Source of the DNA: Vairimorpha necatrix
Taxonomy: Eukaryota
Length of the DNA stretch: 64,000 nucleotides
Assembly (NCBI GenBank): GCA_036630325.1
Contig: CP142733.1
Coordinates: 806,001-870,000 of the forward strand
Direction of reading: 5' to 3'
Below, piece after piece: positions 1-64,000 of the stretch (the stretch's first letter is position 1; every line of letters starts with the position of its first letter). The position numbers and the translations under genes are program-made. A model generated the notes under the pieces. That model was not told where the DNA came from and did not search any database. It saw only the letters and a list, made by a program, of their open reading frames with translations.

Positions 1-1446
1 GATGAGACAGAAATGCCTGTATATTTCATTTCAAGAAAACTAAATCCAGCTGAAATCAATTACACAGTAACCGAAAAAGAATGCCTGGCGATAATATGGA
101 GCATATCTCAATTCCGTATTTATCTTACAAATACTTTTACCATTAAAACTGATCATCAAGCACTCAAATGGCTGCTAAGTTATAAAGAAAGTACAGGAAG
201 ACTAATGAGATGGATTCTCACATTGGAAAATTACTCCTATGACATCGAATACATAAAAGGAAAAGATAACGTTGTAGCTGACGGATTGACAAGATTTGTT
301 CACACAGTAAAATATAAAAATGAACGAGAACTATCGCCCGAGAGTCGTAAAGAACTTATACTGAAATGCCACGAAGAATGTGGACATGGAAGCACTCTCC
401 CAACATACACTCTAACTCTTGACCAAGCCAAATGGAAAGGCATGTATGAGGAAATAAAACAAGTGATTGGAAAGTGTCAGGTATGTTTAAAATTCAATTC
501 AAAAAGAATAACAAGAGAACACCACAGGATTCGCCTAAAAGATCCATTCTCACTGGTAGGAATTGATATGGTAGGACCTCTACCTAAGTCCGAGAATGGT
601 AAAATATATCTAATAGTCGCCACAGATTACTTGACAAGATGGTGCGAAGCGAAAGCCGTAAGAAATAAGACTTCTAAAACAGTGGCTAAATTTATATTCG
701 AGGAGATTATATGTAGACATGGCCCACCCAATGAAATTCTTTCAGATAGGGGACTTGAATTTTTAAACAGTACGGTCAAAGAACTATGTAGAATATTTAA
801 AATAAGAAAATCTTTTACATCAGCCTACCACCCACAATGTAATGGCACGGTAGAAAGAACCAATCAATCACTAGTGGCCAAATTGGCAAAGATCATAAAT
901 GGAAGGTGGAAAGACTGGGACGAATACGTCGAACTGGCTCTATACGCGTACAGAATTTCTCCCAGAAAAATAACAGGACTCTCTCCCTTTGAGCTATTAT
1001 ATGGACGAAAACCTATGACATGGGAACATCCCGAAGAAGAAACCTTAGATTTGGAAGATAATTTTTTAATATTTGAAAGATTAAAGCATACTCGGGATAT
1101 TATGTTACAAGCCGAGAGAGAGGCCAGAGAAGGTGAAATAAAGGATGTTAAAGAACAGACACTTCAGATAGGAGACGTGGTGCTAAGAAGAAAACCACTC
1201 ATCAAGATTAAAAATAAATTGGATAGTAAGTTCGAGGGCCCATACACGATAACTAAGGTGGGTAAGAAAGGGGCATATGAAATAATAAGCCCTAATAATG
1301 AAGTGTTCTCGGTGAATTGGAAAGACCTAAAGAAGATGGACTTTGAACTAGAAACCTGGGAGCCGATAAAGAAAGGGGGAGTGTCAGGGGACAGATCTCC
1401 GGTGATACTAAGATTACCCTGGAGATCTGAGAATACCATGCTGTAA
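1..1446 (+). CDS. Ty3/Gypsy pol C-terminal part (RNase H + integrase), runs in from the window edge
   Basis: RNase H motifs NYTVTEKECLAI, TDHQAL, NVVADGLTR; integrase HEECGH...CQVC zinc finger, GIDMVGP, SDRGLEF, YHPQCNGTVER, KFEGPY. The stop codon lies inside the 3' LTR. Confidence 0.95.
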   Translation, partial: DETEMPVYFISRKLNPAEINYTVTEKECLAIIWSISQFRIYLTNTFTIKTDHQALKWLLSYKESTGRLMRWILTLENYSYDIEYIKGKDNVVADGLTRFVHTVKYKNERELSPESRKELILKCHEECGHGSTLPTYTLTLDQAKWKGMYEEIKQVIGKCQVCLKFNSKRITREHHRIRLKDPFSLVGIDMVGPLPKSENGKIYLIVATDYLTRWCEAKAVRNKTSKTVAKFIFEEIICRHGPPNEILSDRGLEFLNSTVKELCRIFKIRKSFTSAYHPQCNGTVERTNQSLVAKLAKIINGRWKDWDEYVELALYAYRISPRKITGLSPFELLYGRKPMTWEHPEEETLDLEDNFLIFERLKHTRDIMLQAEREAREGEIKDVKEQTLQIGDVVLRRKPLIKIKNKLDSKFEGPYTITKVGKKGAYEIISPNNEVFSVNWKDLKKMDFELETWEPIKKGGVSGDRSPVILRLPWRSENTML

Positions 1447-6960: not shown

Positions 6961-7743
6961 TTTTTTTTTCTTGCAAGTAAGAGGTAGGGAGAAACCTTAC
7001 ATAGGACCAAGGGGATTTGGGTGTGATCCTCATCCAACTGGTACTGTGAGATTCTTACTCACTAAAACTACCTCCATACAACTTGCCGGTGCAGCAAACT
7101 CCGCCGTATCCTTTGGACAACAGTCCAAAGAATAATTTTCATTTATAACATAATTTGCGTATGATAATCTCTCAGCAAATACACATATCAGGCATAGATA
7201 TCTCTCCATGTGAGAGACAATTCGTACTAATTTAATGGTCCCTACAATCACCCGTATTGCACACACGGCTCTTTACACGACCACATCACCAGCACTCCAT
7301 TTTCATTGGACTGCGTTGACCACCAGTTTTCCATTAGTTTTGACCACCGTGTTACAGAATTTTGTAGAATAGGTTCAACGAGACCTTCTATTGTCCTACT
7401 TCTTCTAGTCTCTAAGTTGGCTCTAGGACCCCACTCTAGAGTGCATCAGCCATGGGCTCCAACTAGGCCGTACCCATTAGATACTTTTATGTATCATTAA
7501 GCCACCAAAGGGCGATACTATTTTTTTTTGGCTTTGAGGTGCGTTTCTACACTAGATGCTAATCCCCTCGTGGCTGGACTCACACAAGTTTTATTGATTC
7601 AACTTAATAATTATCGTGGACATTTTCATCATCTGAGGTGTTCCAACTGCATCATAGAAAGTAGAAACAATTAGGGAGCCTTGGGAATCGAACCCAGCCA
7701 TTGCTTAATGGAAGCATTGCCTTTTCACTAGGCTAAGGGCTCC
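6961..7743 (-). mobile_element. tRNA-derived SINE, copy 1 (full length)
   Basis: Cloverleaf head at 7674-7743 (acceptor GGAGCC/GGCTCC, D stem GCCT/AGGC, B box GGTTCGATTCC); A9 tail; 15-bp TSD TTA(C/T)TATATTACAAG at 6946-6960 and 7744-7758; second copy at 45208-45995. Confidence 0.85.
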
Positions 7744-8539: not shown

Positions 8540-8770
8540 TTCTAATATATATATTTACTCTAATATATTATTATTTACTCTAATATATTATTATTTACTC
8601 TAATATATTATTTACTCTATATTTATATTATATTTTAGATCTATATTAATTTATATTATATTTAAATCTATATTAATTTATATTATATTTTAGATCTATA
8701 TTAATTTATATTATATTTTAGATCTAATATATATTTACTCTATATTATATTTTAGATCTATATTATATTT
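8540..8770. repeat. AT-rich minisatellite
   Basis: Repeated TCTAATATATTATTATTTAC and TCTATATTAATTTATATTATATTTTAGA units. Confidence 0.8.
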
Positions 8771-32632: not shown

Positions 32633-33656
32633 GGCTAAAGTAAGCATTAGCTACAAAAAATCGATATAGGGTTTTTTTGTTTTTTTTTGCCCCTTTTTTT
32701 TAAAAATGGAGGAAAGAATTCGGACAAGAGAAGAATTGGAGATCATGTATAATGATCTAATAATAAAGAAACAAAATAAAAAATGTAGCGTCTGTAATCA
32801 AAAAATGAAGCAAAGAGGGGAGCAAAGGAGTCTCATAAGGTGTCCATGGAGTTCATGTAAAAACACAATTTCAATTTGGAATGAGACTTTCTTTCAGGAG
32901 TCTAGGATAAATCACATTACAATATTACAAATACTAAATTTATGGATTTTAGGTTATTCACGTAAGTCCATTTCTCAAGTTTTAGGTTGTACTAAATCTT
33001 CTATATCTTCCATTCTAAAAAAGTTAAAACACATGAGTCTTTATGATAAGTATTTATCTAGTATAGGGACTATTGGAGGCGATAATACTATAGTGGAAAT
33101 TGATGAGACTAAGATTGGGAAGAATAAATACAATAGGGGGAAGTTAGTAAAAGGATTTTGGTGTTTTGGAATGGTTGAACGTACCATCCAACGTAGAATC
33201 ATAGTAGTATATATTAAGAAAAGAAACAAAAGGACACTTACTGAACTTCTTTTAAAATATGTAAGTAGAAGCAGTATTATATATAGCGATATGTGGAGAG
33301 CGTATCATTCTTTAAATACAATATTTAACCAACATCATATGGTTAATCATACATTACATTTTAGAGATCCGAATACAGGAGTACATACCAATACCATAGA
33401 AGGTAATTGGAGATCTTTAAAACAATCTATACCAAATAGAAATAGATCATCAAATAGCGCTAAACTTTATTTATTTAGATATATGATCCAAAGAAACTCT
33501 ACAACTTCAGTGTTTGAAGATTTATTAAAATATTTATTCTAGTTTTTATTTTTGTTCCTTCCTCATCATTTTCTTTCCTCCATTTTTAAAAAAAAGGGGC
33601 AAAAAAAAACAAAAAAACCCTATATCGATTTTTTGTAGCTAAAGCTTACTTCAGCC
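32633..33656 (+). mobile_element. Intact Merlin DNA transposon (1024 bp)
   Basis: 86-bp TIRs (32633-32718 and 33571-33656, two mismatches) starting GGCT; 8-bp TSD AAAATGAG on both sides. Confidence 0.95.
32706..33542 (+). CDS. Merlin (IS1016/IS1595-like) DDE transposase
   Basis: N-terminal CxxC..CxxxxC; VEIDETKIGKNKYNRG, IYSDMWRAY, HHMVNH, VHTNTIEGNW. Confidence 0.95.
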   Translation: MEERIRTREELEIMYNDLIIKKQNKKCSVCNQKMKQRGEQRSLIRCPWSSCKNTISIWNETFFQESRINHITILQILNLWILGYSRKSISQVLGCTKSSISSILKKLKHMSLYDKYLSSIGTIGGDNTIVEIDETKIGKNKYNRGKLVKGFWCFGMVERTIQRRIIVVYIKKRNKRTLTELLLKYVSRSSIIYSDMWRAYHSLNTIFNQHHMVNHTLHFRDPNTGVHTNTIEGNWRSLKQSIPNRNRSSNSAKLYLFRYMIQRNSTTSVFEDLLKYLF

Positions 33657-36223: not shown

Positions 36224-39200
36224 TGTTATTTTTTTTACATGAGAGTTACTAGCCCAACATCTCCTCCACAGAACGGTTAGTCTTACTCCCTACAATTGCT
36301 TTGAGATCATAATGTCTCTTTTCAATAATTTTCTTATCCTCGGTATATACTAGGTAGGAATCAAACCACAAATTTCTTCAATATCGCCTTTTCTTTCGAA
36401 TCTACCACTATCCTGTTTGCTAAAATTACAAAATTTTCTCTCTTAGCAATCCTTAGAGCTAGCCTACTAAAAACTTTTTTTTGCCATTTTAATAAATTTC
36501 TTGGCAAAATCACGAGAGTTTTCCTACTTTACCTCTACATCAATATTTCCTTCGCAACAGCCTCTAAGGGAGTACACTTAAGTCGACTATGATACGTACT
36601 ATTATAAAACACCGTTGTCTTATTCACCGCAGCTTCAACGTAATTAGTACGCTGCTTAAACACGCCTTCCCGTATAGTTCTTATCGCCCCTTAGACCCAG
36701 CCGTTGCTTCTATGCTAACAAGCTTATGCTTGATCTTGTTTATAAAACACCACTTCCTAAAGTCTTCGCCTAAAAACTCTTTGGCGTTATCGCTTACAAT
36801 CACTTCGGGGATACCTCCTTCTTAAGCCAAGTCTCAAAAGCACTAATAATCATATTTGTACTTTTATCTTTTACAACACTGGCATACAAATATCGAGGAA
36901 ACATTCAATTATTATCAACCCCGATTTTCTAGGTTCAACAATCTCCATGATATCGGATAACAATTTTCTCGCCTTTAAACTCGATAAAACAAATTCAACA
37001 CCATCCTTATTCTTTATATTTATTATCTGACATATCATATGGCTCTCATTCCCTATATTTACTAATCTCACATTTCCGGCCAATAATAATGTTTCTTGAG
37101 GTCATAATCTGTTTCTTTACCCCCTCTGTGGTTTAACCATGTATGTCCTTTACTATTTTTGATCTCGCTTTTAATTTCGGGATTTCCATATGTAATCCCT
37201 TATCAAATTCCCAAAACTCTTTATTATCTTTGATCACTGTATGTTTTTCAATTTTTTCTTTCATTTCTGCAGTAACTTTTTCTTTAATCTATTATTCATT
37301 TTTATCTTTCTCATCCTGAAATTGTCTACTTTAAGCATTCGCATCTGCCATATTTTACCTTTTACATATTGTACGGTGAAGTCATACTCCTGTATCCTTT
37401 TAATTGTCGATTTACTCTGTTATTATTAAATAAAATGTTTGTTCCTGATTTCTTTTAAGGCTTAATGGTTCGTCATTAATTCGAATTTGCATTCTCTCAA
37501 TTTGTATGAAAAATTTTCTATGCCCCATACAACCGCTAACATTTCGTTTTCCGTGTAACATATCTTCAATCTGTTGGAGTCAATTTTTTCGAGCCCATTG
37601 TATAACATCCACTTTCCTTTTTTTATTCTTCTGTAAAAGCACTGCTTCCAGGCCAGATCCGACGCATTCGTACGTAACCTAAATTCCTTACGGTAGATCG
37701 GTATCTTAAGAGTCTGTAAATTGCTGAACTTATATTTTACTATACTAAATTCTTCTTCCATTATGATTAACAACTTCTATTTTTTACTCGTTTTATGTGC
37801 CTCAAATAAGTTTAATGTACTCGTATCAAAATTGTTAATAAATTTTCTAATACAGCCTGCTAATCCCAAAAATCCTTGCAACTCTTTTATGCATACGGCC
37901 GCCTATATAGCGCTTCATTTCTTGTTAACTCTGAAGAATTTTATATACTACCAACTATTGACACACCAATAAATAAACTTAACTTATGCTATGTTATTTT
38001 TTTGTAGGATTACCTTTAGACATGCTTTTGAAACTTTTTTATTACACCCAAAAATAACTCATCGTATCGCTCACCATCTTTAGCGTGGATAACTATATTG
38101 TCTAGGTATATTTCAACACCTTTTCCTCTAAATTCTTCTAAAATCCCATTCGTTGTTTTCTGCATTACCTGTGATGCGTTCATAAATCCCATCACCATGC
38201 TGATCCACTCGTACACATTCGCATCAAATAAAAAAATGTTTTATATTTGTGTTTCTATTCAATAGCTATGTATTAAAAAACTTCTTTAAGATCAATCACA
38301 CTAAATATCGATGATCCTTGAGTCGCTTGAAAAATGTCTCTTATAGTAGGTAACTCATAAGGGTCTAATTCAACCAAATCATTCAACCCCATAAGATTGC
38401 TTTTAATTCGTATCCCACCATAATCAGGCGTCTCAATCGTTCGTATCGGATCTATCCGATCTAAATTAGATCTCCTTATCACAACTCTGTTTTCTAAATT
38501 TATAAGTATCTCCTCGGCTCTTCTTTTGCACTTTTAAAAAATATTAAACCTCTTCTCAATACTTTTGCTCCATTAAGTGTCCTTATAAAACATCTTAACT
38601 TTGTCCCAATGTTATCTTCCCTCCGATTGTTTTAAACGTCTGCAGACTAAAAATTTTCTCTAATTGTAAAAACTATTATCTCTTTAAGTATTAAGTAAGA
38701 ACTCATTACACTTTTTAATCACATACTCATTTATCTTGACTACATAATTAAACTTCTTGTTACTATTATCAATTATAATGGCTGCTCATATCCTTCATGT
38801 CTAGCAATCTCCTTGTATTTTATCTTCCATTCAAGTTTGGTATTCGTAATTTATAGGCATTCATTATCCTAAATTACCTTATTTACCACATTATTTTACA
38901 AATACTAAAACAATAAATTTTTATTCTGATTTTCCCCTTCTTACTAATATGAACGATTCATACAGCTACTAGCTATATTTTCTACTATTCTACATACGAA
39001 ACATAGACTTAATTCTCTTCTTTGATATTGATAATGTTTTTCTGTATTGCCACTCTTCTGATCAGTTCCTCTTATATCTCATTTCTGAAGTTTTTTTTGA
39101 ACACACGCTAACTATTATAATTTTTTCTTCTTTATTTTTTTTTTCTCTTTGTCATTTTTAACTAACTTTTCATTTTCAAAATTTATTTCATTCCAATTTT

Positions 39201-39432
39201 TTTAAATTTCCTGAATTTTCTTCAATGATCAGATCCTGTAGTTCGACATTTGTTTGTCATAATGCCTGTTTTAAAAACTTCTGCAATCTTAATTCATTCT
39301 AATCATTGCAGCTATTCTTTTGGTCTCTTTATAAAGCTTTATGGCCTTCTGACCACGGGTCTCGCTTGTTGCCCCATTTACTCTTGTGTTCGCCATGTTA
39401 GTCTTTTATTCATGAGGGATTCCAACTCAACA
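36224..39432 (-). mobile_element. Full-length but decayed compact Gypsy element (3.2 kb) with 36/37-bp LTRs
   Basis: 5' LTR 39396-39432 and 3' LTR 36224-36259 (both TGTT...AACA); PPT GGAGGAGA; flanks ATAG/TTAG; frameshifted RT (SNLMGLNDLVELDPYEL, YLDNIVIHA), RNase H and integrase (IPEVIVSDNAKEF). Confidence 0.85.
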
Positions 39433-42287: not shown

Positions 42288-45089
42288 GGGCTCAAAAAGA
42301 TTTCCGATATAAATATAGAAAGCAATATAAGTCATATTTGACATTAATATACATCATGATTTTATACATTCGAAAATTTGACATTAAAGTTACAAGTAAA
42401 AGAATTTGCTCAATGTTCAAATATTGTTTTAATTTATGTGTGAACATTAAAAACAAATACAAGACATAGCCAATTACGCAGGAAAAAAAACATTAGTAAT
42501 TGTTTATTGTTTGTTTCTTAATAAGTAAAGTGTTAAAAATTATAAAGTATCAAAAATTGTTCATTCACTATTTTAATGATGAAATTAATGATATTACAGT
42601 GTACGATTAATTTCAAAGACACCATTAAAATCTCTATAGCTTGATTTAAGCTAGCAATAAGTTTGGAACCAATATTACACCATAAAAACGGCCATAGTCT
42701 AATTTTTTTATAAATGATTATCAGAATTAGCAAATATGTAATCCTTGGTTAAATATATGTAGGTTTAATTTCTGTAGGAATTTTTTAGAACAAGGATCTT
42801 TTCTGATATAATTTAGCTACTATGATTCGATATACTTGCAACTGGGGATACGATTGAATTATATGGTGGTATCTGATGTCCATAAAAGAAAATGTAAAAT
42901 CTTCAAACATGTGTGATTCTTCAAAAAAAGGTTAGAATTTGTTCCCTCAAAAGTCACCAATACTCCTGCAAAATCTTTTACAGCTATATCGATCTAGATT
43001 TGCCATGACATCTTGCAATCCTAAGACAACTAACGTTATAAAGTCAAAAAAACAAAAATACGAGGCTGCATCGGCGAATTTTATGACAATGGTGTTTTAA
43101 CAACAAGAACAATAATTCTTAGAGATTAGTACGACTTACCCCCCCCCTTTACATTTCGAAAGACAGTACCAAATGTTATTATTCGGCTCGAGATATTTTC
43201 AACTAACTAAATATTTATTATTTATATTACTTATGCTCCATTTTAATTATAAATTTCTTATGAGTATATCTTATTAGTGAACATACTTAATGTACTAATA
43301 TTGTTAGTTAAGATTAAAATTTTATTTTAAAAAAATTAACTGTTTTATACAAGACCACTCTATAAAATTTTGAGTGTTTCGGAGAAAGAACGAAAAAAAA
43401 GATATTCAAGAAATATAGATTTTAAAATTTTATATATTTATAATGTTACTATTTAAGTTGTATTAAAGAGAAAACTAGATACGAAAGAGATAACTGATCT
43501 TTTTTATTATTCGAACAAAAATAAAAAATAAAAAATAAAACCTTCTGATAATCTTATTTATTCGTAGTATCATTTTCAACATCATCTTGATGACCTTTTA
43601 ACATATCGATTGAAACAAATTAATGTTCTGAAATAATTTTTTTAGTTTATTACAATGATCGTCAATCATTAAATTTTTTTGATCTACATAAATATTATTA
43701 TATAGCCAAAATACATCGGGGTCAAAATTTTCTTTATACTTTTTTCTTTGACCATAGGGAAATTAGTTATAACATAATTTTATGCTCTTTACGTTCAATT
43801 ATAGTTTTAAGAAACGTTTTACATTATATAAAAGTAATTTTTTTAGAGATTTCTCTTGAGAACGCATTCTCTAATGTGTTAGCAGCTCTGAATCAATAGT
43901 ACAATATGTAAAATCATCCGTTTTATATAAAATGATAATTGTTTATGTTCATTGTATGCCTTACTATCTGTAGAGAAAATGAACACTGTGTAATAATTGG
44001 ATTCAAAAGTATCTAATACACCATTAAATCCAATATAAATAACGAAAAAATCTTTTATTCTATATGGAAATAGCTAACTACCTATATTGGCGTTATATCT
44101 AATATAAACGATATAAATTTCAGCATCGAAAAGCAGAATTTTAAACAAAAAAATATTTTTAAAAATTTTATGATGAAAAATACATATTTGCATATTGTAT
44201 AGGTATGAACAACTTTTTAGTAAATAAAGAAGTCGAATTTGACCTAAAAATTCAAAAAACATTTAAAAAAAAATAATACGCTGCTTTTCTGTATTCACAT
44301 ATTTGTTTAGAAAGGCGCCTATTTAATTGTTTTTATGTGTCGCCGAATACAAAAAGATCACAATACTTTAAATCTAATTACAAAGACGAAGGTTTTTAAA
44401 TGTCTCAACAATACATTTATTACGGAAAATGATAAGAAATTAAAGATAATATTGATTTTGATTTGCAAAAACATTTACATGATAAATATAGATGATAGGG
44501 GAAATGCATGAATACTTCAAATCGTAAAGGATTAGATTATAATTATCAAGAAAGTTTTGTGGAACATTCTTAATATAGAAATAATAATATAAAATAACTC
44601 ATTTGTATCGTATATATGTGCTTAATATCTAGAAAGTAACCGTTTCTGTTGTAATAACACATTGAAATCCTGAACGGCATGCAAGTTAATCGAAAGAGAT
44701 AAAAGTAAAAAAATTAAAATCTTTATAAATCGCGGGTGGAAACTTGACAGTTAGCGCTATTATAATTATGGTTTGAAACAGTAAAATCGCATCTATATAT
44801 ATGATACAAAAAAAAATTCCAAGGGCTAAAAAGATTGCATCCGCGTAAACCGTTATGATACACGATGATAAAAGGTGTGACCATAAATATTTACATTTAA
44901 CAAAATAAAAAGCTTTTTAGATGACAGGCAAGTTTCAAGACGAATCAATATTGATACAACTTAAGTAAAAAAGAATAAACGAATTACACTAAATTTATTA
45001 TATTGTATTCTGATAAATTAAATTCCTTAAACAATAAATTTCGTCGCGGACTAAAAATGTCTTGAGAATAAGTTTAAAAACAAATCAAA

Positions 45090-45207
45090 TGTATTTATTT
45101 TCTATAATAGGGCTCAAAAATATAAGAATATATAACATCCCCCCTCCAAGACGGTTAGTCTCCTACGTCATCATCAACCCTAAGCAGATTTTTTTAGTCA
45201 TAGTGCC
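45090..45207 (-). mobile_element. Gypsy 3' end remnant: integrase tail, PPT and 48-bp LTR
   Basis: RHYD codons, GACTAACCGT motif, PPT GGAGGGGGGA, then TGTTATATATTCTTATATTTTTGAGCCCTATTATAGAAAATAAATACA, matching the LTR at 62218-62266. Confidence 0.8.
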
Positions 45208-45995
45208 TTTTTTTTTCTTGGAAGTAAGAGGTAGGGAGAAACCTTACATAGGGATCAGAGAGATTTGGGTATGAACTTCATCCAACTGGTACTGTATGAT
45301 TCTTAGTCACTAAAACTCCCTCCATACAACTTGCCGGTGCAGCAAGCTCCGCCGTATCCATTGGACTTTGGCTCCAGGAGAACATTTTCCATTTATACCT
45401 CAAATCGCGTCCAGAGTGACCTCACAGCAAATATACATATCAGGCATAGATATCTCTCCCTGTGAGAGACATCATCGTAGTGACTCAAAGGTCCCTACAA
45501 TCATCTGTATTGCACACATGGCTCCTTACACGACCACATCACCAGCCCTCCATTTTTATTGGACTGCGTTGACCACCAGTTTTCCATTAGTTTCGGCCAC
45601 CGTGTTACAGAATTTTGTAGAATAGGTTCCACGAGACCTTCTATTGTCCTACTTCTTCTAGTCTCTAAGTTAGTTCTAGGACCCCACTCTAGAGTGCATC
45701 ATTCATGGGTCGCAACTAGGCCGTACCCGTTAGATACTTTTATGTAACATTAAGTCACAAAAGGGTGGTACTACTTTTTGGCTTTGAGGTGCGTTTCTAC
45801 ATTATACGCTAATCCCCTTGTGGATTGACATACATAAGTTTCATTAAATTAACTTAATGATTATCGTGGACATTTTAATCATCTGAGTTGTTTCAACTGC
45901 ATCTTCCAAAAAGAATCAATTTTGGTGCCCCTGGGAATCGAACCCAGCCATTGCTCAATGGAAGCATTGCATTCTACCACTGTGCTAAGGGCGTC
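45208..45995 (-). mobile_element. tRNA-derived SINE, copy 2
   Basis: Head GCCCTTAGCACAGTGGTAGAATGC...CTGGGTTCGATTCCCAGGGGCACCA (A and B boxes); A9 tail; colinear with 6961-7743. Confidence 0.85.
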
Positions 45996-48686: not shown

Positions 48687-49377
48687 TAAGGGGATTAAAA
48701 AATTCAAATTTTTATGGGAATATAGAAATGCAAACAGGGGAATATAGAAATGCAAAACCCCGTAACAGGGTTTTTTATCGAGAAGGTTCAAATTAAAAAT
48801 TTAGATAACCTACATAGTAGAATTTTATAACATGCCTTGGGATGATTCTTTCTAAATTTATTATTATATTATTCTTACACATGGCTTTTTTTTTATATTT
48901 GTAAAATAAAAAATGCAAAAACAAAATTGTGCTTCAATATAAATTTATATATAAAAATTAATGTAAACTGCTTCAACTCTTTAAAATACATTGTATTTAA
49001 TATTAAATAAATGTATTGTGTCGAAAAATAGAAACATTGGTATTATTAAATAAAATATAAAAATTAGGCACAATCTTAATTTGAGTTTTATTAGTTTTTG
49101 ATGCGTGTTGGTAAAAAGCATTGAAAATGAAATTATGTATGAAGCGTATGTTAATAATATAGTTAAATTCAATTTATCATAATTAAAATTTTTATGTGTT
49201 AAGAAAAATCAAAAAGAGAAGTGATTTGAAACTTAAAATCATAAAAAAAATAAAATAATTAAGTGATGTGAATTTCATAAGCTTTTTTTTGATCACATTA
49301 AATTACTCTTTTTCTTAAAAAAATTTTATAAAAAGATGACATTTATTTTGACTTTTAAACTAATTTTTTTATACCTT

Positions 49378-51571
49378 ATGTTTCTTGGAATAATTTTTTT
49401 AATAGATTTTTTACTAGCAAGTCAAAATGTTTATGAAAAATTTAATGTATTAATACATAACAAAATAGAAAATGAAGATTTTGTTACAATAAATATCAAT
49501 AAGAAATATATGAGAATATCCTTAGACTTTGAAGATGAAAAAAATATATTTATTATAAAAATTTTGACATTTAATTATGATTATGAAATTCTGGTTGAAT
49601 CCAGCAAAATTAAGATTTCATGTTGCGAACAAACTATTGAAAACATAGTACAAGAATGTGAAGATGAATTATTGATCGAATATAAAAGAAAACTACCTGA
49701 TTCTATTGTATTAATCTATGATACAAAAAGTTTTGAGACCATTCCCACGTATAAAAAAATAATCAATTATATCAAAAAGGTTAACGACGAAAGAAAAAAT
49801 ACAGATTTAAGTCTTGAATTGTGGTATGAATACATAATTGATGAACATGTTATGTGGAGCATAATGTTTCCAATAATCATGCATCAAAATTTGGATTTAT
49901 ATGATGATTTAACTGCACCGCATTCAAAAATAAAATTAATCAAAAGAAACGATAAGCATTTAGTTTGCTTTTGTATTAAAGTTGAGGACGTTTTATGTTT
50001 TATTGAAATTGATATCAGGGAAATCGGTATAGAAAATCTAAGTCCAGTGGCAATAGTAGATATAGCGCAAAAAAACGAGACAGATATGCAGATAAGTGAA
50101 TATTTTAATGAATTATATAAGACACTTTATATTGATGTCTTTAAGTTAAATTCTTATTCATGTTTCGGTCGTTGTTCAATTAATAAGATTACATTTCTGT
50201 GTAGTAAGTTTACAATCGAAATTATTGATGACGAAATACATTTTAGAGACAATTATAACTACTATATTTATTCAACAAAAAAGGAAAACATAATTGATGT
50301 AAAATGTCTTTTTGAATTTCTTGAAATTTTTAAGAAGATATCAGTGATTAAATCAAACGAAGAACATATTGCGAGCTGCGTGTTATTTTTTAGATTAATA
50401 GAATATAATAGAAAGGTGGAGTTTTTAGTGAATAGAATCTTAAGTACACCTCGTTCGGCTTTAAATATAATGTTTACACATCTTTTATTAGAACATAAAT
50501 TAATACATGAAGATGAAAGAATTAAACTTATTGATAATGAAGGAATTTGTGATCAAAAATTGAAAAACAAAATATTAAATATGCTTTTATTTCATGGAAG
50601 TTTGTCGAGAAGTTTTCTAATAAAAATTTGTCTATTTTTAGAAGCAGAAAAATACATTAATGAAGTTGATGTGATCGAAGATAACATTTTTAGTACTTTA
50701 AAAAAAATAGGAATTCTTATCTTGAAAAAAGAACACACAAAAACAATTTGTGTTAGTGTAACATCAAAAAATAAGAATATTGATTTATTAAAAATATACC
50801 AGGAACTAATAACATGTCATCTAGAAAATATCAGAGCTTTTATGTTAAATATTTGGGATCATTTTTTTAAAATAGCTTCATTATGTACAGGATTGGAAAG
50901 TAACAGCTACGAAATAGGTTGGAACGAATTTTTTATCAGAAAAGAACAAGTTGTTCATTTTTTAGGATTTGATGACAATGAAGTAAAGATTAAGAATGAA
51001 CTGTTAAAAAAAAAATTATCAGAAAATTTAAATAGTAATTTAAAGAAAGATCATATATATGATATTCTATATAAAAAAATTAAAACAAAATTATTTACAA
51101 AATTAAATAAAATTAACTCAGAAGCTTTAAATTTAAAAGTTTTAATTCCATTTGATGAAGAAGTATATGTTAGATATGAAACAGAATTGAAAGAAAGAGG
51201 AATCAGAGAAATAGAAAATACATTTTTACTTGATGATGCGTTAAAAAAGTTATCAAAAAATGAAAACATTTGTGTAAAAAAATTAATAAATGATTATAAA
51301 ATCGAAGAAAAAGAAATCTTTTACGAGAATTTAAAGGTTAACATTAAAGAAAATATAAAAAGAAACTGTAAAAAAAAATTTAACCCAACTTTTAGCGAAA
51401 ATATTTGAAAAAAATTTTGATTATGCTGCCAATCAACGATCAATGTGTAAAAATAACATTGAATATGTTCTTAGAATATTAAATTATAATGGTTTCCTAG
51501 ATGTCCTTAAGCACGATAGAGGAATGGTTTTACATGATGAACTGATAAAGATCTTAGAAGACCAAAATTAA
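49378..51571 (+). CDS. Large putative secreted family member 1 (frameshift at A9, 51370-51378)
   Basis: MFLGIIFLIDFLLAS start; shares NKIEN.D.VTI, FLVNRIL, NI.FTHLLL, KICLF..AE.YINE with 52703-54979; the homologous tail continues in the +1 frame to TAA at 51571. Confidence 0.8.
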
Positions 51572-52702: not shown

Positions 52703-54979
52703 ATGAATATATTTGTAAATTTTATTTTAATTTTATTTATACAAGGTTGTCAGGATATCTACAATAAACTTAACTATGTAATTAACAAAAAAATTGAGAA
52801 TAGAGATTATGTAACGATTGATTTGAATAAAGACTGCTTGAGAATAAACTTAATGTGGAAAAAAGATACAAGCTCACTTATCGCGAGTTTAAACATTGAT
52901 TTTTTTGATAATATAGATAAAATATCTTTAATAGAAATTAATTGTATTGACAAATGTATTGAAATTATTGTCAAAGAACTCGAAGAAAAGTTATCACATG
53001 AAATTAAGAAAACTACAGCAAGCTGTATTATTTTAAATTATTTTCCATTGGTTTATGAATGTATTCCAATTTACAGAAATGTCGTTATACATTTAAAGAA
53101 AACTAATATAATTAGAAAAGATAAAAAATTGAATCATGAAATTTTTTACACATGCATTATTGAAAATAATATTATATGGAACATAGTTTTTAAAATCATA
53201 AAATTCAATAATCTAGAATCCGAGTATAAACACGAAATCGATTTTCCACTCAATTTTATAAGAAAAAACAATAATCTTTTTATATGTTTTTATATTAATT
53301 TGGAAAATTTAGTTTTTTTCTTTGAAATAGACGTTAAAGATCTTGATGTTGAAAAACTTTTCCCATATATTAACATCATTACGTCTCATACAAATGAAAC
53401 AGACAAAATTATAAGCAAAATTATACATGAACTATACAAAAAAGACAAGATTTATAGGATATGTAATTCTTATACGAGGGGCATGACGATCTATAATCGT
53501 AAAAAAGTAGTTTTAATTTATAGAGATTTTGAAATAGAGCTTAATGATGACAGTTTACAAATTAAACAAAAAAGTGCAAAATATAATTATTCTTTTAAAG
53601 ATGATTCAAACTATAATGGAATTAAATCTAACATTGATGATAAATGCTTTTTAGAGTTTCAAGATTTTTTTAGAAAACTCTATATAGTGATAGAAAAAGA
53701 TGAATGCTCTATAGGAGTAGAGATGTTTTACCGATTAATCGAAAGCTATGGTAAAGTACTGTTTTTTGTGAACAGAATTTTGAATAATCGAGGTACAATT
53801 TTAAATATAATATTTACGCACCTTTTATTAGCAAATGAATTAATTGATAACAATGAGTTACATAAAATTATATTAGATGATAAATTAAATGATTTGAGGA
53901 TAATTGAACTTCAAAAAACGATATTAGAAGCCTTTTCAAATCATAGTGTATTGTCATGTACGATGTTGATGAAAATATGTTTGTTTTTTGATGCTGAACG
54001 ATATATAAATGAAAATGATATTAACAATGAATCAATCTTTGGTACTTTGAAAAAAATTGGAAAACTTATAAGTTTAAAAGATAAGAATCAAACTGATAGT
54101 GAATTAAATGCATCTGATGCCAAAGAAAAGATTGATTTGTTAGAAATATACCAAGATGCAGTTTCTAATCATTTGGATGACATTGAAAATTTCAAGAACA
54201 TTGTCAGAGAATATGTTTTTGATATGACATCATTATTTACTGGAAAGATGAAAAATATATCGGAAAATGATATAAACTATATTTTTAATATTCGTACTGA
54301 AGTTACTACAACCTTTAATATGGAAAAAAAAATTATTCAAAGTAATAACGACACAATAAGAAAAAAATTGCAAGAAAATTATCGAAAAGATGAAGAAAAA
54401 GATAAAATAAATCAATTAAACGCAATTAAAAGTTTTAAAACACAATTAATTGATAAAAATTTTATAGAGGAAGACATACAACATTATAAAAATAAAGTTA
54501 AAAGGATTATATATAAAAATGTAATAACAAAATTTAAAAAACAGTTAAATGAAGTTGTAGATTTTACTGACATAGAAATAACTAGCAAATTCTTCATTAA
54601 CTTTAAATACGAAATTTTTAATATAATTGAGAGAATGATGGAATATGATGATATAATTAAAGAAACAGTAAATTTAATTCTGATTGTTGACAAAGATTTT
54701 ATAAATAATTTTAAAATCGATAAAAATTTGAATCAAAAATTAAAATTTTATATTAATGAAAACATAAGAAAACATAGCAAAACGATTTTTCCAGCGGCCT
54801 TAATACAAGTTTTTGAAAGTAATTTTACAAATGATAAAAATTTCAAAATCAAATGTGCAAAAAAATTGGATTATATACAATCAGTTTTAAATTCAGAAGA
54901 TATATTATTTTTATACAACGAATCAGGTAAAAAATTGCTTAAAGATTTGTTGGCAGTATTGGAAACAAAAAAAATTTAA
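52703..54979 (+). CDS. Large putative secreted family member 2 (758 aa)
   Basis: Signal-like MNIFVNFILILFIQG; colinear paralog of the previous gene. Confidence 0.88.
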   Translation: MNIFVNFILILFIQGCQDIYNKLNYVINKKIENRDYVTIDLNKDCLRINLMWKKDTSSLIASLNIDFFDNIDKISLIEINCIDKCIEIIVKELEEKLSHEIKKTTASCIILNYFPLVYECIPIYRNVVIHLKKTNIIRKDKKLNHEIFYTCIIENNIIWNIVFKIIKFNNLESEYKHEIDFPLNFIRKNNNLFICFYINLENLVFFFEIDVKDLDVEKLFPYINIITSHTNETDKIISKIIHELYKKDKIYRICNSYTRGMTIYNRKKVVLIYRDFEIELNDDSLQIKQKSAKYNYSFKDDSNYNGIKSNIDDKCFLEFQDFFRKLYIVIEKDECSIGVEMFYRLIESYGKVLFFVNRILNNRGTILNIIFTHLLLANELIDNNELHKIILDDKLNDLRIIELQKTILEAFSNHSVLSCTMLMKICLFFDAERYINENDINNESIFGTLKKIGKLISLKDKNQTDSELNASDAKEKIDLLEIYQDAVSNHLDDIENFKNIVREYVFDMTSLFTGKMKNISENDINYIFNIRTEVTTTFNMEKKIIQSNNDTIRKKLQENYRKDEEKDKINQLNAIKSFKTQLIDKNFIEEDIQHYKNKVKRIIYKNVITKFKKQLNEVVDFTDIEITSKFFINFKYEIFNIIERMMEYDDIIKETVNLILIVDKDFINNFKIDKNLNQKLKFYINENIRKHSKTIFPAALIQVFESNFTNDKNFKIKCAKKLDYIQSVLNSEDILFLYNESGKKLLKDLLAVLETKKI

Positions 54980-59849: not shown

Positions 59850-62050
59850 CTCCGGATGAGATTCCACCGAGCTATACAAGGTACTACTTAAACCTAGTTT
59901 AGTAGATAAAAAGCTACCTCTGTTCTTAGTGAACGAGTTCAACAGAATACTAACAGGAGACCGCCCTCCTGTTAGCTGGAGTGCTGCTGACATGATTTGC
60001 CTCCATAAAAAAGAGGATGTGTCAGATCTCAACAACTATAGAGGAATTGCGCTAATTAACACAATAAGCAAAATTTACTTAAAAATAGTAAACGACAGAC
60101 TTACACAGTTTGTTGAAGAAAAGAACATTTTTTCATCTTTCCAAGCCGGATTTAGAGCAGGAGAAGAATGTATGAATAAGATCGCAACCTTGCTGGAGGT
60201 GGTTAAAAGAAGAGAATTTCGAAGTCAACAAACATTTCTATGTTTTTTTTACTTTGAAAAAACTTACGACAATGTTAGCCATGATCTACTATTTAATAAG
60301 CTAGAAAGGTATAGTATTCCAAGATATCTTATAAACACTTTGAAAGATATCTATGGAAATACTAAGATGAGAATCCATATAAACGGAGACACAAGTAGTG
60401 GATATCTCTACAAAAAAGGTGTGAGACAAGGGTGCCCCTGTTCTCCTACGCTGTTCAATCTATTCATAAATGATATTTTGGACGGCATAACAGGAGTGAG
60501 CGTTCCTCACTTAAATATAAGCCTGCCTGGACTGATGTTTGCAGATGACATCGTAGTTCTAGGCAATACTCTTGCTGATCTGTAACACAAAGTGTGTCGA
60601 ATCAGTAGATGGGCAGTTGAAAATCGTATGAAGATCAACTGTGACAAAAGTGGTATCTTAGTATGGGATGCCAGTAATATATCCGAGTCTGTAGATGTCG
60701 CTATCAGGACTGACTTTGGAAAAATCGGTGAAGTCGCCGAATACAGGTATTTGGGTGTTCTTATAAAAAGATCTACTTTAGAAGAACACTTAGTAAGAGA
60801 TGGAGCCTTCAGAGGCAAAAAAGCTTTATAAGTCTTGAAACCAAAGCTTCTAAATAAAATAATTAATATAGCTTTTAAAGGTATATTAATAAAAAATGTG
60901 CTATTTCCATCACTAATGTGCGGAAGTGAATTATGGGGGATGTCTAGTATAAGGTCTGGTGGGATCAATAGAATCCTAATAAAAGCGATCCGAATGATAT
61001 TTCGAACAAAAATAGTGCCATTAGATAGGATAATGGACGAACTCTGTATGAATAGAGTTCACATACAGGCGGCCCTAAGTAGATTTAGGGCATTAAGGAA
61101 GTGGAAACACAATAAAACCATTATCTCGGAATTTATTAATTAACCTTCGAGGGAAAAGAAAACAACGTGGAGTTTAAGGACTAGACGTTGGTGTAAGAGA
61201 TATATCGGGAACGATTATGAAAGCATTGCCTACATTATAGGCAAGAACAAGATTTTAGAGGTACTTAAGGCAAGGGGTTCCTACAACACCACCTTAGGTG
61301 CTCTAGTAGCAGATAAGTATGGAATCTGTGACTCGCAGATTAAGCACATACAATCAAAAGTAAACAACAGGCAGATCAGGAATTACACCAGGCTTCGGTG
61401 TAATTTAGTCAGATGGTCTTCTGCTTTGGCTAATGCCAACAAAATCCCTCCTTTTTATAGAACTCATTGTTTCCTATGTGAGGGAGAACGAGAAGACCTT
61501 GAACACTTCTTTTAGACTGTCCGACGCTCTCTAACACAAGATCTCTATATGAGAATTAAATATCTGAGTTGAGATCTTCAATTCAAACAAAAGAGAAGCT
61601 AGTTAAGATGATTATTAGTAACATCAATGGCATCAAAGCTTGTTTTGATAAAAGGAAGTCTCTACTTGTAAGAGTTAAATTCATAGACAAGATGGTTGTA
61701 CAACGATACATTGTTATACGAGAAAGGAAAGGCTTGTAAGCCAGAACAGATCTAGAGAAATCTAGAAGAAAAAAAAACACACTCTTACCTGGGGGAGGTA
61801 TGGCAAGCTGCTGGTGCCGTAGCATTTACGTTAAACTAGTTAGGTTTTTAACTGACGAGTGGGTCAGACGTGTTATTCTCTGAATACCCTGCTGAACGCA
61901 GGTAGGTCACAGACAGGAATGATTGTGGTTCTAATCCTAGTGGGATACTTTTTCTCCTTCGAGCAAGGCCTTTATAGTATGCTGGTTTAATCGCAAGTTA
62001 TTGGCTATTGAAGTTTTTATTTGCTGGGTGGCTTTTCTTTAATAACAATA
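59850..62050 (+). mobile_element. 5'-truncated LINE-type non-LTR retrotransposon (pseudogenised RT)
   Basis: YRGIAL, QAGFR, GVRQGCPCSPTLFN, MFADDI, YRYLG, C-terminal CFLC..EDLEHFF*DC; in-frame stops; TAATAACAATA tail; possible degenerate ~20-bp TSD AAA.TT.T.TAGTTTTTTTT. Confidence 0.88.
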
Positions 62051-62146: not shown

Positions 62147-62217
62147 CGTCTGCGTTTTTGTTTATATTAATTTTTTTGCAATTAAATGAATACAATTATG
62201 AAGATATTATTAATTTA

Positions 62218-62266
62218 TGTTATATATTCTTATATTTTTGATCCCCAATTATGATAAATAAATACA
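62218..62266 (+). mobile_element. 49-bp 5' LTR of a compact Gypsy element
   Basis: TGT...ACA ends; first 24 and last 11 nt identical to the PPT-adjacent LTR at 45090-45137, with no similarity outside; contains CCCC and AATAAA. Confidence 0.8.
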
Positions 62267-64000
62267 TGGGGGCGATACCGAATCGTGAGTTAACAAGTGT
62301 TGGCTGTAGTCAAGAGGCCAGAAGGTTATTAGAAGAGTTTAAGAGGATTGTTTATGGATTAGTATTGTCTGATTATGATTTTGAGAAAAATGTAAAGAAG
62401 GAGATTTTTGATCTTGGAACTGATGAGTTGAAAGAATTTATGGTTAAGAATATTAAGATTGGAGATCATTGGAAAGTTATGGAAATCAAATTAGAGGAAT
62501 TGGTTAAAGTACAGGAGGAAAAGGATATGAGATTACGGATGATTGAGGAGGTCACAAAGATGGTGGCAGAGGAGATTAGAAATATTAGTAGAGAGGAAAG
62601 AATATTTAAGAAGAGAAGAACAATGAGATGTTATAATTGTTCAAGAATGGGACATAGGAGTCAGATGTGTTATTATAGATATAGAAATGTTAAAAATAAA
62701 GACGAATGTGAGAGTATTAAAGAAGAAGGTAGCAGTAGCTGTGGTGAAAGGACTTATAGGAACACATGGGATGCTAAAAGACAAAAGAAACAAGAATGGA
62801 AGACAAGAAATAAAAGATGTTATGATGAGGTAGAAAAAAACGGTCTAACATTAGAAGACATGAGAAAGAGGTTTAGGAACGTTATAGACAACGAAGAAGA
62901 GAAAATAAGATATTGTAAAATTAAAAAATGCAGAATCAGAACTGAAGAAGGTAAGAAAGTTGTAAGGAAAGGTCAGCAGGTGCCACAAGCGCATAAAGAA
63001 GAGCTGAGAAAATATATTCAGAAGTTAGAGACAAGGAATGTCATAAGAAGATCGACGTCGGAATGGAGAAATCCGATTAAAGCTTTAATTAAGCCAGATG
63101 GAAGTATAAGACTGGTTAGCAATCTCATGGCATTAAATGATTTAGTGGAGAAAGACCCTTATGAATTAGTGAACATTAGAAATATCATAAGGAACACGCA
63201 AGGATCGAAGTTTTTCAGTGTTATAGACCTTAAAGAGGCTTTTTATGGAATCGAAATAGAAGAGCAAGACAAGCATAAGACTGCATTTGAGTATGATAAG
63301 ATAGTATATGAATGGAATAGTATGGTCATGGGGTTTAAAAACTCGCCTCAGATCATGCAGAGAATTATGAATAAGATTTTTGAAAAACATTTGGGTGGTA
63401 AAATAGAAGTATACATGGATGATATAGTGATTCATGCAAAGACTAGAAAAGAACATGATAAATTATTTGTAGAAGCGATGAAATTGTTAGAACGGAATAA
63501 TATGCGGATAAATTCAAAGAAAATTCAGTATTGCCAAAAGGAAGTCAAGTTATTGGGAGTTACATTAAACGGAGATGATATGATGCCGTCTGAAATCAAG
63601 AAAAACGAAGCACTAGAGTTTCCAACGCCGCAGAATGTGTCTGACATAAGAAGATTTTTAGGACTAAGTGGATGGTTTCGAGGATTTATTAAGAATTATG
63701 CGGAGAAGACATTATATATGACTGAAAGTTTGAAAGGTAAAAGTAAAGTATTGAATTGGACTGATGACTTAAATAAAGAATTCGAAAATATGAAGGAAAC
63801 GTTAAGAAGTATGAGTAAGTTGAATATTGTAAACTATGACAAGGAATTTTTATTAAGAACTGACGCGAGCAATATAGGAATGGGCGCAGTACTCATGCAG
63901 AAGAATGATAAAGAAGAGTGGGTGCCAGTACAATGGGCATCGAAGAAATTCACCCCGACGGAAACTAGATATGGTATAAGTGAAAAGGAAATGTATGCCA
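62266..64000 (+). CDS. Single open Gag-RT-RNase H ORF of a compact Gypsy (runs off the window; absent from the ORF track)
   Basis: Hand translation shows no stop: CYNCSRMGHRSQMC knuckle (62629-62670), SEWRNPI, IDLKEAFY, YMDD (63412-63423), RRFLGL, TDASN.GMGAVL, SEKEM. Confidence 0.92.
   Translation, partial: MGAIPNRELTSVGCSQEARRLLEEFKRIVYGLVLSDYDFEKNVKKEIFDLGTDELKEFMVKNIKIGDHWKVMEIKLEELVKVQEEKDMRLRMIEEVTKMVAEEIRNISREERIFKKRRTMRCYNCSRMGHRSQMCYYRYRNVKNKDECESIKEEGSSSCGERTYRNTWDAKRQKKQEWKTRNKRCYDEVEKNGLTLEDMRKRFRNVIDNEEEKIRYCKIKKCRIRTEEGKKVVRKGQQVPQAHKEELRKYIQKLETRNVIRRSTSEWRNPIKALIKPDGSIRLVSNLMALNDLVEKDPYELVNIRNIIRNTQGSKFFSVIDLKEAFYGIEIEEQDKHKTAFEYDKIVYEWNSMVMGFKNSPQIMQRIMNKIFEKHLGGKIEVYMDDIVIHAKTRKEHDKLFVEAMKLLERNNMRINSKKIQYCQKEVKLLGVTLNGDDMMPSEIKKNEALEFPTPQNVSDIRRFLGLSGWFRGFIKNYAEKTLYMTESLKGKSKVLNWTDDLNKEFENMKETLRSMSKLNIVNYDKEFLLRTDASNIGMGAVLMQKNDKEEWVPVQWASKKFTPTETRYGISEKEMYA

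Follow-up and report, generated by a model that had tools for sequence, protein, structure and literature searches.

The window analysed here is a 64,000-nucleotide stretch of the microsporidian Vairimorpha necatrix (contig CP142733.1), AT-rich throughout with 20–37% G+C. At its right end lies a copy of a compact Ty3/gypsy-type long terminal repeat (LTR) retrotransposon, called the intact copy below. It has one open reading frame (ORF) on the plus strand, at 62251..63999, which continues without a stop for 583 codons until the window cuts it. In this frame a short Gag and a zinc knuckle are joined to the reverse transcriptase (RT) by a charged linker, and no aspartic protease (retropepsin) is found between them. 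The features of the intact copy are as follows.

62218..62266, plus strand: 5′ LTR, 49 bp, TG...CA, recognised by repeat similarity and contig ends
62251..63999, plus strand: polyprotein in the order gag, RT, RNase H (RH) and integrase (IN), first 583 aa; open frame, cut by the window end
62251..62625, plus strand: mini-Gag, aa 1–125, with an all-helical AlphaFold2 model
62629..62670, plus strand: CCHC zinc knuckle, aa 127–140, nucleocapsid-like, CYNCSRMGHRSQMC; Pfam zf-CCHC
62671..62871, plus strand: linker, aa 141–207, 67 residues, 48% Lys, Arg, Glu or Asp
62872..63999, plus strand: RT and the first part of RNase H, from the pre-RT segment FRNVID, which starts at aa 208; Pfam RVT_1 and RT_RNaseH_2

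With about 7% stops per codon, our own estimate from base composition, DNA of about 33% G+C should not by chance yield 583 open codons in a row. The visible polyprotein is 54% identical over its whole length to a relative of 1024 aa (P0001). A preliminary description of this DNA had reported about 120 residues ahead of a CCHC knuckle at aa 122–135, about 67 charged residues without D(T/S)G between the knuckle and FRNVID, and a frame free of frameshifts and stops. All of this holds. The knuckle falls at aa 127–140 when counted from the first ATG, the offset arising because the earlier count began at the second ATG at 62266. The linker measures exactly 67 residues, and the frame is open for all 583 aa to the window end.

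Pfam identifies RVT_1 at aa 281–439 (E = 6.6e-32) and RT_RNaseH_2 at aa 503–583 (E = 1.1e-22; RT_RNaseH, 1.3e-15), together with a weak zf-CCHC match at aa 126–140 (E = 0.005). In the alignment with relatives the YMDD motif and the other conserved RT columns are retained, and the RT enzyme of this copy looks intact. The motifs RLVSNLMALN and SMVMGF, earlier described as unusual and shared with a decayed copy in the window, are indeed present. Their equivalents in the decayed copy read IRIKSNLMGLN and ISMVMGF. Both motifs occur in the alignment consensus of the relatives and are typical of the clade. Within the knuckle, CYNCSRMGHRSQMC, residues C127, C130, G134, H135 and C140 are invariant in 22 of 22 alignment rows. 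A sequence search of the PDB gave nucleocapsid knuckles only, the best matches being the nucleocapsid of human immunodeficiency virus 1 (HIV-1; E = 0.026–0.07).

The mini-Gag was modelled by AlphaFold2 from the 22-row alignment. Helices are predicted at residues 12–41, 47–55 and 58–67, followed by a long one at 74–124. The predicted local distance difference test score (pLDDT) is above 90 over most of aa 21–140 and has a mean of 78 for aa 1–235. The long helix is heptad-patterned, with hydrophobic residues at 67% of the a/d positions vs 39% overall. VIA-align, run against 48,161 chains, returned generic coiled coils only, on residues 73–125 with Z ≤ 5.2. No capsid family is among the Pfam results for the ORF and no capsid fold among the Foldseek or VIA-align rows, and a capsid may still be present. 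Look-alikes of the mini-Gag by a protein language model are gag-plus-knuckle clusters with scores of 0.81–0.86, below the level that counts.

After the knuckle the model has helices at 143–151, 170–197 and 201–212, with a low-confidence and probably disordered stretch at 152–168. The linker in this region sits where protease-bearing relatives have their protease. It is the least conserved part of the polyprotein, with 4–16% identity to nine relatives, and no conserved cleavage site is visible among them. The lack of a conserved motif argues mildly against a specific cleavage site of the viral type.

The protease was looked for by motif, profile and structure. The motif D[TS]G is absent throughout the 583 aa of the intact ORF, and a Pfam scan of the ORF gives no protease family at E ≤ 1. 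A protease profile was built from the pre-RT region of 12 protease-bearing relatives. It recovers protease-bearing relatives outside the seed at E values of 1e-5 to 1e-17. Against the intact ORF it gives E = 2.1 (1.5 bits), and against the close relatives E = 0.099–13. A six-frame search of the whole 64-kb window with the same profile has a best E of 0.73. Retropepsins have an all-beta fold. The AlphaFold2 model of aa 1–235 is entirely helical apart from the knuckle and contains no strand, and Foldseek finds 0 matches to it in the PDB at E ≤ 0.001, the weak rows being retroviral nucleocapsid knuckles.

As a positive control we used the first 338 residues of a protease-bearing relative, P0008, which carries AIKDTGSEL at the linker position. 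Its model contains a beta domain at aa 204–290. Foldseek returned 267 PDB matches for it at E ≤ 0.001, and all 50 of the rows listed are retropepsins, including yeast and Leishmania Ddi1 and the proteases of HIV-1 and feline immunodeficiency virus. The structure procedure thus detects a protease where one is present. The absence of a retropepsin, claimed in the preliminary description together with a proposal to check it by profile and fold, is borne out by Pfam, by the protease profile and by both structural methods.

The same architecture is found in the relatives. A search limited to longer proteins gave 88 matches. The nine best, P0001–P0009, have 1024–1188 aa and are 40–58% identical, and their precomputed Pfam assignments are rve, RVT_1, RT_RNaseH(_2) and Integrase_H2C2, with no protease family. 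P0009, from the microsporidian Pseudoloma neurophilia, is recorded as a ‘putative LTR retrotransposon’. Protease families do occur in more distant matches (P0010, P0011, P0013 and P0016, about 31% identity). HMMER, run across the whole library, gave 86,661 matches, of which the best 150 were kept. When 36 relatives were scanned with Pfam at E ≤ 0.1, an aspartic-protease family was found N-terminal of the RT in 16 and none in 20, the latter being P0001–P0007 (42–58% identical) and 13 further relatives. In the protease-bearing relatives D[TS]G lies 91–106 residues ahead of the RT start. The full-length protease-less relatives have about 990–1190 aa; they follow the order gag-knuckle-RT-RH-IN and then end. 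Many open and divergent members of the family exist.

Two apparent protease traces among the relatives were examined and rejected. The sequence SVVDTGNGM in P0003 is located 35 aa before the RT start, not about 91–106, and scores −1.0 bits with the protease profile. The Peptidase_A17 matches in P0003 and P0151 fall in the RT-RH connection (about aa 496–615) and not N-terminal of the RT.

A phylogenetic tree was calculated with IQ-TREE from the RT-RH region. Of 169 proteins in which 300 or more of the 361 RT-RH residues were covered, the 38 with an identity of 33% or more were retained. Together with eight distant protease-bearing outgroup rows and the window copy they make 47 rows. The root was taken from this chosen outgroup, which is not one side of a single branch. 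All sixteen protease-less rows, with seven rows whose N-terminus is too short to judge, form one clade of 23 rows (ultrafast bootstrap, UFBoot, 93; SH-aLRT 67), and a 20-row core of this clade has support of 98/93. The sister of the protease-less clade consists of six rows, P0008, P0137, P0172, P0132, P0186 and P0191, all of them protease-bearing (100/98), and the two together are supported at 100/99.

Because the sister clade retains the protease, one loss is enough to explain the distribution, and one change of protease state suffices in 94% of 200 bootstrap trees. We read the change as a loss and not a gain on the grounds that all deeper rows have the protease. Within the protease-less clade the RT-RH identity goes down to about 36–46%. 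The preliminary description had named protease-bearing close relatives as the observation that would overturn its reading. Such relatives did not appear. By Pfam and by profile the close relatives are without a protease, and the protease-less rows form one RT-RH clade. From these sequence comparisons we consider the anatomy described above, and the loss of the protease across the clade, very probable. The shortening of Gag is older than the protease loss: P0188, which is protease-bearing, has its knuckle already at aa 99–112 in a protein of 978 aa.

Two further copies in the window add to this picture and to the definition of the element ends.

36224..39432, minus strand: decayed complete copy, 3209 bp, with LTRs at 39396–39432 (37 bp) and 36224–36259 (36 bp) and many broken frames
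45089..45138, minus strand: 3′ LTR left over from another copy, with 88% identity to the intact 49-bp LTR, the similarity stopping sharply at both ends

In the decayed copy, frame fragments cover positions 5–1037 of the 1040-position family profile, in order, between the LTRs. The N-terminal profile match is at 39292–39405 (E = 5.5e-4). Profile positions 5–256 are spanned by about 267 codons, which leaves no room for the roughly 100 extra residues of a protease. The LTR pair of 37 and 36 bp was located by eye and is about 72% alike by our own count; a repeat search with a 40-bp minimum did not pick it up. The small size is shared by other members, as the protease-less relatives P0001, P0099, P0108 and P0151 (987–1090 aa) are on contigs of just 3047–3797 bp. 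A protease downstream of the window, the other observation named beforehand as fatal to the reading, is seen neither in the full-length relatives nor in the decayed copy nor in the six-frame search.

The LTR remnant is preceded by a polypurine run, GGAGGGGGG, located at 45139, and by the last codons of the polyprotein. These codons read ETNRLGGGML and resemble the C-termini of P0005 and P0002. With codons and polypurine run directly ahead of the LTR, the polyprotein frame crosses the polypurine tract into the 3′ LTR. A family profile search of the window found no element body beside this remnant. The remnant lies about 790 bases from a tRNA-Met gene (45923–45995, minus strand), and a second tRNA-Met gene is found at 7674–7743; tRNA genes are the targets of Ty3. 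Immediately after its 5′ LTR the intact copy reads TGG..., which has no match to the 3′ ends of these two tRNA-Met genes.

The left boundary of the intact copy is fixed by contigs of two public sequencing runs (X1 and X2), which match from 62218 on and have unrelated sequence before it, with loose ends at 62217 in three X1 and two X2 contigs. The first ATG, at 62251, is within the 49-bp LTR, 5–9 bases after a CCCC run. The second, at 62266–62268, straddles the LTR end and the following TGG. Both methionines are kept in relatives, and which ATG is used depends on the transcription start within the short LTR. The 3′ LTR of the intact copy is beyond the window, and the integrase of the family is known from P0001–P0009 and the decayed copy.

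Summed contig depth in X1 and X2 is uneven along the element. Over 62212–62335, which covers the LTR and the first 25 or so gag codons, it exceeds the depth over the remaining ORF by a factor of about 6–30. In other contigs the downstream part is the same but is joined at 62269 to a different LTR-like sequence. Judging by these contigs, the 5′ end seems to occur in many more copies or families than does the element body. One X1 contig (depth 20) joins 62323 to 63304 and skips 980 bases, that is most of gag, the linker and the RT start. This junction may stem from a copy with an internal deletion or from an error of assembly.

The recent activity read earlier from the intact ORF is supported in part, by the indirect evidence of contigs about 99% identical to the window copy in two public runs; the closest of them differ from it at 9 of 841 and 7 of 895 letters. 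Of 182 differences, the 39 with the best support comprise 15 silent ones and 24 that alter the protein, one of these creating a stop, while 75% changing would be expected at random (one-sided p = 0.044). Three related loci were compared. L001 and L002 do not differ within their 3101-bp overlap and L003 has only 66% identity, so that no pair is usable for a ratio of non-synonymous to synonymous rates.

On balance we lean towards the following interpretation. The family is an ultra-compact Ty3/gypsy-type element of microsporidian kind, about 3.1–3.3 kb long with LTRs of about 40–50 bp, whose polyprotein lacks a retropepsin and would act uncut. The protease was very probably lost once, in the ancestor of a clade that is now diverse, and the polyprotein would since have stayed uncut, with the mini-Gag fused to RT-RH-IN. 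That the polyprotein works unprocessed is a step that we infer, and we put its chances at about even. The mechanism would use the parts that are present. The putative coiled coil of the modelled mini-Gag would join polyprotein copies, while the knuckle and the basic linker would bind and chaperone the element's own RNA. RT-RH-IN would act while fused, with one enzyme per Gag, and an RNA–protein complex would be formed instead of a matured capsid. The complete proposal, in which an old and diversified LTR-retrotransposon clade replicates without retropepsin or conventional capsid by means of one uncut fusion that assembles via a coiled coil on its own RNA, is put forward tentatively, and we would give it somewhat less than an even chance.

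Several points weigh against this interpretation. Protease inactivation in Ty1, Ty3 and retroviruses blocks maturation and transposition, so an active unprocessed Gag-Pol would be unusual. The Pseudoloma-type subclade (three rows) joins the core clade with moderate support only (93/67), and two losses instead of one are therefore possible. The selection signal is weak, as it pools live and dead copies and uses only 39 of the 182 differences, and constraint is not apparent in gag (6 changing, 2 silent) or in the linker (3 changing, 2 silent). The four public runs that were compared all consist of DNA contigs and none of RNA, so none bears on expression. The intact copy is visible only to aa 583, and both its downstream integrity and the identity of its LTR pair lie beyond the window. 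Finally, a more conventional Ty3/gypsy element in the same window (1–1446) and the protease-bearing sister clade make it possible that a protease is supplied in trans.

This last possibility is the strongest of the rivals, although we still regard it as unlikely. Here the retropepsin would come from protease-bearing gypsy elements of the same genome, and the family would be non-autonomous for that one function. Potential donors can be named, namely the sister clade of P0008 and its five companions and the other Ty3/gypsy lineage at 1–1446, but the co-residence of a protease-bearing member in the same genome is an assumption. The linker, where a cut between Gag and RT would be expected, is too variable (4–16% identity) to display any shared cleavage motif. 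Moreover, in a clade of this age and diversity, with RT-RH identities down to about 36–46%, the dependence would need to have persisted in many hosts. A host protease could replace the retropepsin by cutting disordered linkers. The low-confidence stretch at aa 152–168 after the knuckle is probably disordered in the model and would be accessible to a protease, and the host's own retropepsin-like Ddi1 would be one candidate cutter. No conserved site is seen in the linker, however, and we treat processing by the host as speculation, a little less probable again than supply in trans.

The two remaining explanations are contradicted by the data. The intact copy might be one dead element that arose by deletion from a normal protease-bearing one, as internal deletions are common in LTR elements and the X1 contig joining 62323 to 63304 could be an example. 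But the architecture is common to every close relative whose N-terminus is sufficient, and these relatives form a clade; the frame has 583 codons without a stop, and its spacing recurs in the independent decayed copy, so this explanation is very improbable. Slightly less probable still is a displaced protease, which might lie beyond the window end, ahead of gag or in a different frame. The window does end inside RNase H, with the rest of the intact copy out of view; the full-length relatives, however, stop after RT-RH-IN and have no unassigned stretch of about 100 aa, and the 3209 bp of the decayed copy are coding all the way between its two LTRs. Upstream, the 5′ LTR abuts the start codon, and the six-frame search of the window is empty.

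By its enzymes the family belongs to the Ty3/gypsy lineage. The RT/RNase H with its YxDD motif is of the Ty3/gypsy type and the RT-RH tree places the window ORF among Ty3/gypsy polyproteins. In P0001–P0009 and in the decayed copy RNase H is followed by an H2C2 and DDE integrase, which gives the order RT-RH-IN. A retropepsin between nucleocapsid and RT is lacking. We therefore assign the family to the Ty3/gypsy lineage by RT-RH descent, as a member not canonical in gene content. It is not DIRS-like, as the relatives carry rve and Integrase_H2C2 in place of a tyrosine recombinase. Nor is it one of the non-autonomous LARD, TRIM or TR-GAG types, since RT and RH are encoded and the integrase is present in the relatives and the decayed copy.

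A comparison with known systems shows which features are shared. Ty3 of budding yeast and Tf1 of fission yeast have in common with the window family the RVT_1/RT_RNaseH_2 domains, the CCHC knuckle, the DDE integrase (in the relatives) and TG...CA LTRs, and Tf1 also has a single gag-pol frame. Both are elements of about 5 kb with a two-domain capsid, a retropepsin between nucleocapsid and RT, and LTRs of hundreds of bases. The window family, in contrast, has no protease, no detectable capsid fold and LTRs of about 36–49 bp in about 3.2 kb. DIRS/Ngaro and Penelope-like elements are likewise free of an aspartic protease; they rely on a tyrosine recombinase or a GIY-YIG nuclease, and their terminal repeats are of another kind, whereas the window family keeps the Ty3-type H2C2 and rve integrase. 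A precedent for an RT that works while fused is given by the hepadnavirus P protein and the foamy-virus PR-RT. In these viruses the capsid protein is made separately, and they are unrelated to the window family in gene order or lineage. LINE-1 ORF1p, a separate protein of a non-LTR element, coats its own RNA by means of a coiled coil and a nucleic-acid-binding module. Its resemblance to the mini-Gag is a functional analogy, with no homology shown.

Among microsporidian elements, the main text of Parisot et al. 2014 (PMC4202319) describes microsporidia-specific Ty3/gypsy groups with one gag-pol polyprotein instead of two ORFs and with the order RT-RH-IN. The single polyprotein and this order are common to those groups and the window family. 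That main text never uses the words ‘protease’, ‘peptidase’ or ‘aspartic’, and the absence of the protease may be drawn without comment in its Figure 1A or supplements, or in Xu et al. As summarised in the text of Gill et al. 2008 (PMC2474625), Xu et al. 2006 found Gag, protease, RT, RNase H and integrase to be encoded by nearly all elements of Nosema bombycis. By that summary nearly all of these Nbr elements have the protease that is absent from the window family. The text of Panek et al. (PMC4072689) reports a transposable-element ‘POL polyprotein’ detected by proteomics in Anncaliia algerae, so such polyproteins are made; it is silent on processing. A full-text literature search, with subscription journals, figures and supplements outside its reach, found no statement that microsporidian or any autonomous gypsy elements lack a protease.

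In textbooks the protease is essential in every autonomous LTR retrotransposon and retrovirus, and elements without one tend to be classed as defective. The present clade as a whole has been without a protease since before its divergence to about 36–46% RT-RH identity, and open frames and near-identical copies persist in it. If these elements do move autonomously, an uncut Gag-Pol is enough for reverse transcription and integration, and proteolytic maturation, regarded as obligatory for LTR elements and retroviruses, would be dispensable. With about 3.1 kb and LTRs of 40–50 bp, the element would in that case be near the minimal autonomous LTR retroelement, and the family would provide a natural system to ask what maturation is needed for. 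Domain classifiers and LTR finders that expect a protease and LTRs of at least 100 bases would miss or misfile the family in microsporidian genomes.

The window contains several other mobile elements. The Ty3/gypsy element at 1–1446 (plus strand) is represented by its RNase H-integrase part, cut by the window start, and is different from the present family and more conventional. Its nearest matches are animal-type polyproteins with 32–33% identity. At 59929–61143 (plus strand) a non-LTR RT similar to those of long interspersed nuclear elements (LINEs) is spread over three adjacent frames of 218, 79 and 102 aa (RVT_1, E = 1.9e-29), the last of which ends about 1.1 kb upstream of the gypsy 5′ LTR. 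An ORF of 278 aa at 32706–33542 (plus strand) has an ISXO2-like (Merlin-type) DDE transposase domain (E = 3.4e-17), a superfamily described as abundant in microsporidia in the main text of PMC4202319.

Nine of the 16 window ORFs of 180–996 aa have no Pfam family at E ≤ 0.001, for example those at 14383–17373 (minus strand), 49336–51408 (plus strand) and 52703–54979 (plus strand). This lack of family matches fits a fast-evolving parasite genome. At 8628–8760 short AT-rich units recur every 27–28 bases (8644, 8671 and 8699), where the LTR queries gave matches at chance level, and this region may be a small tandem array.

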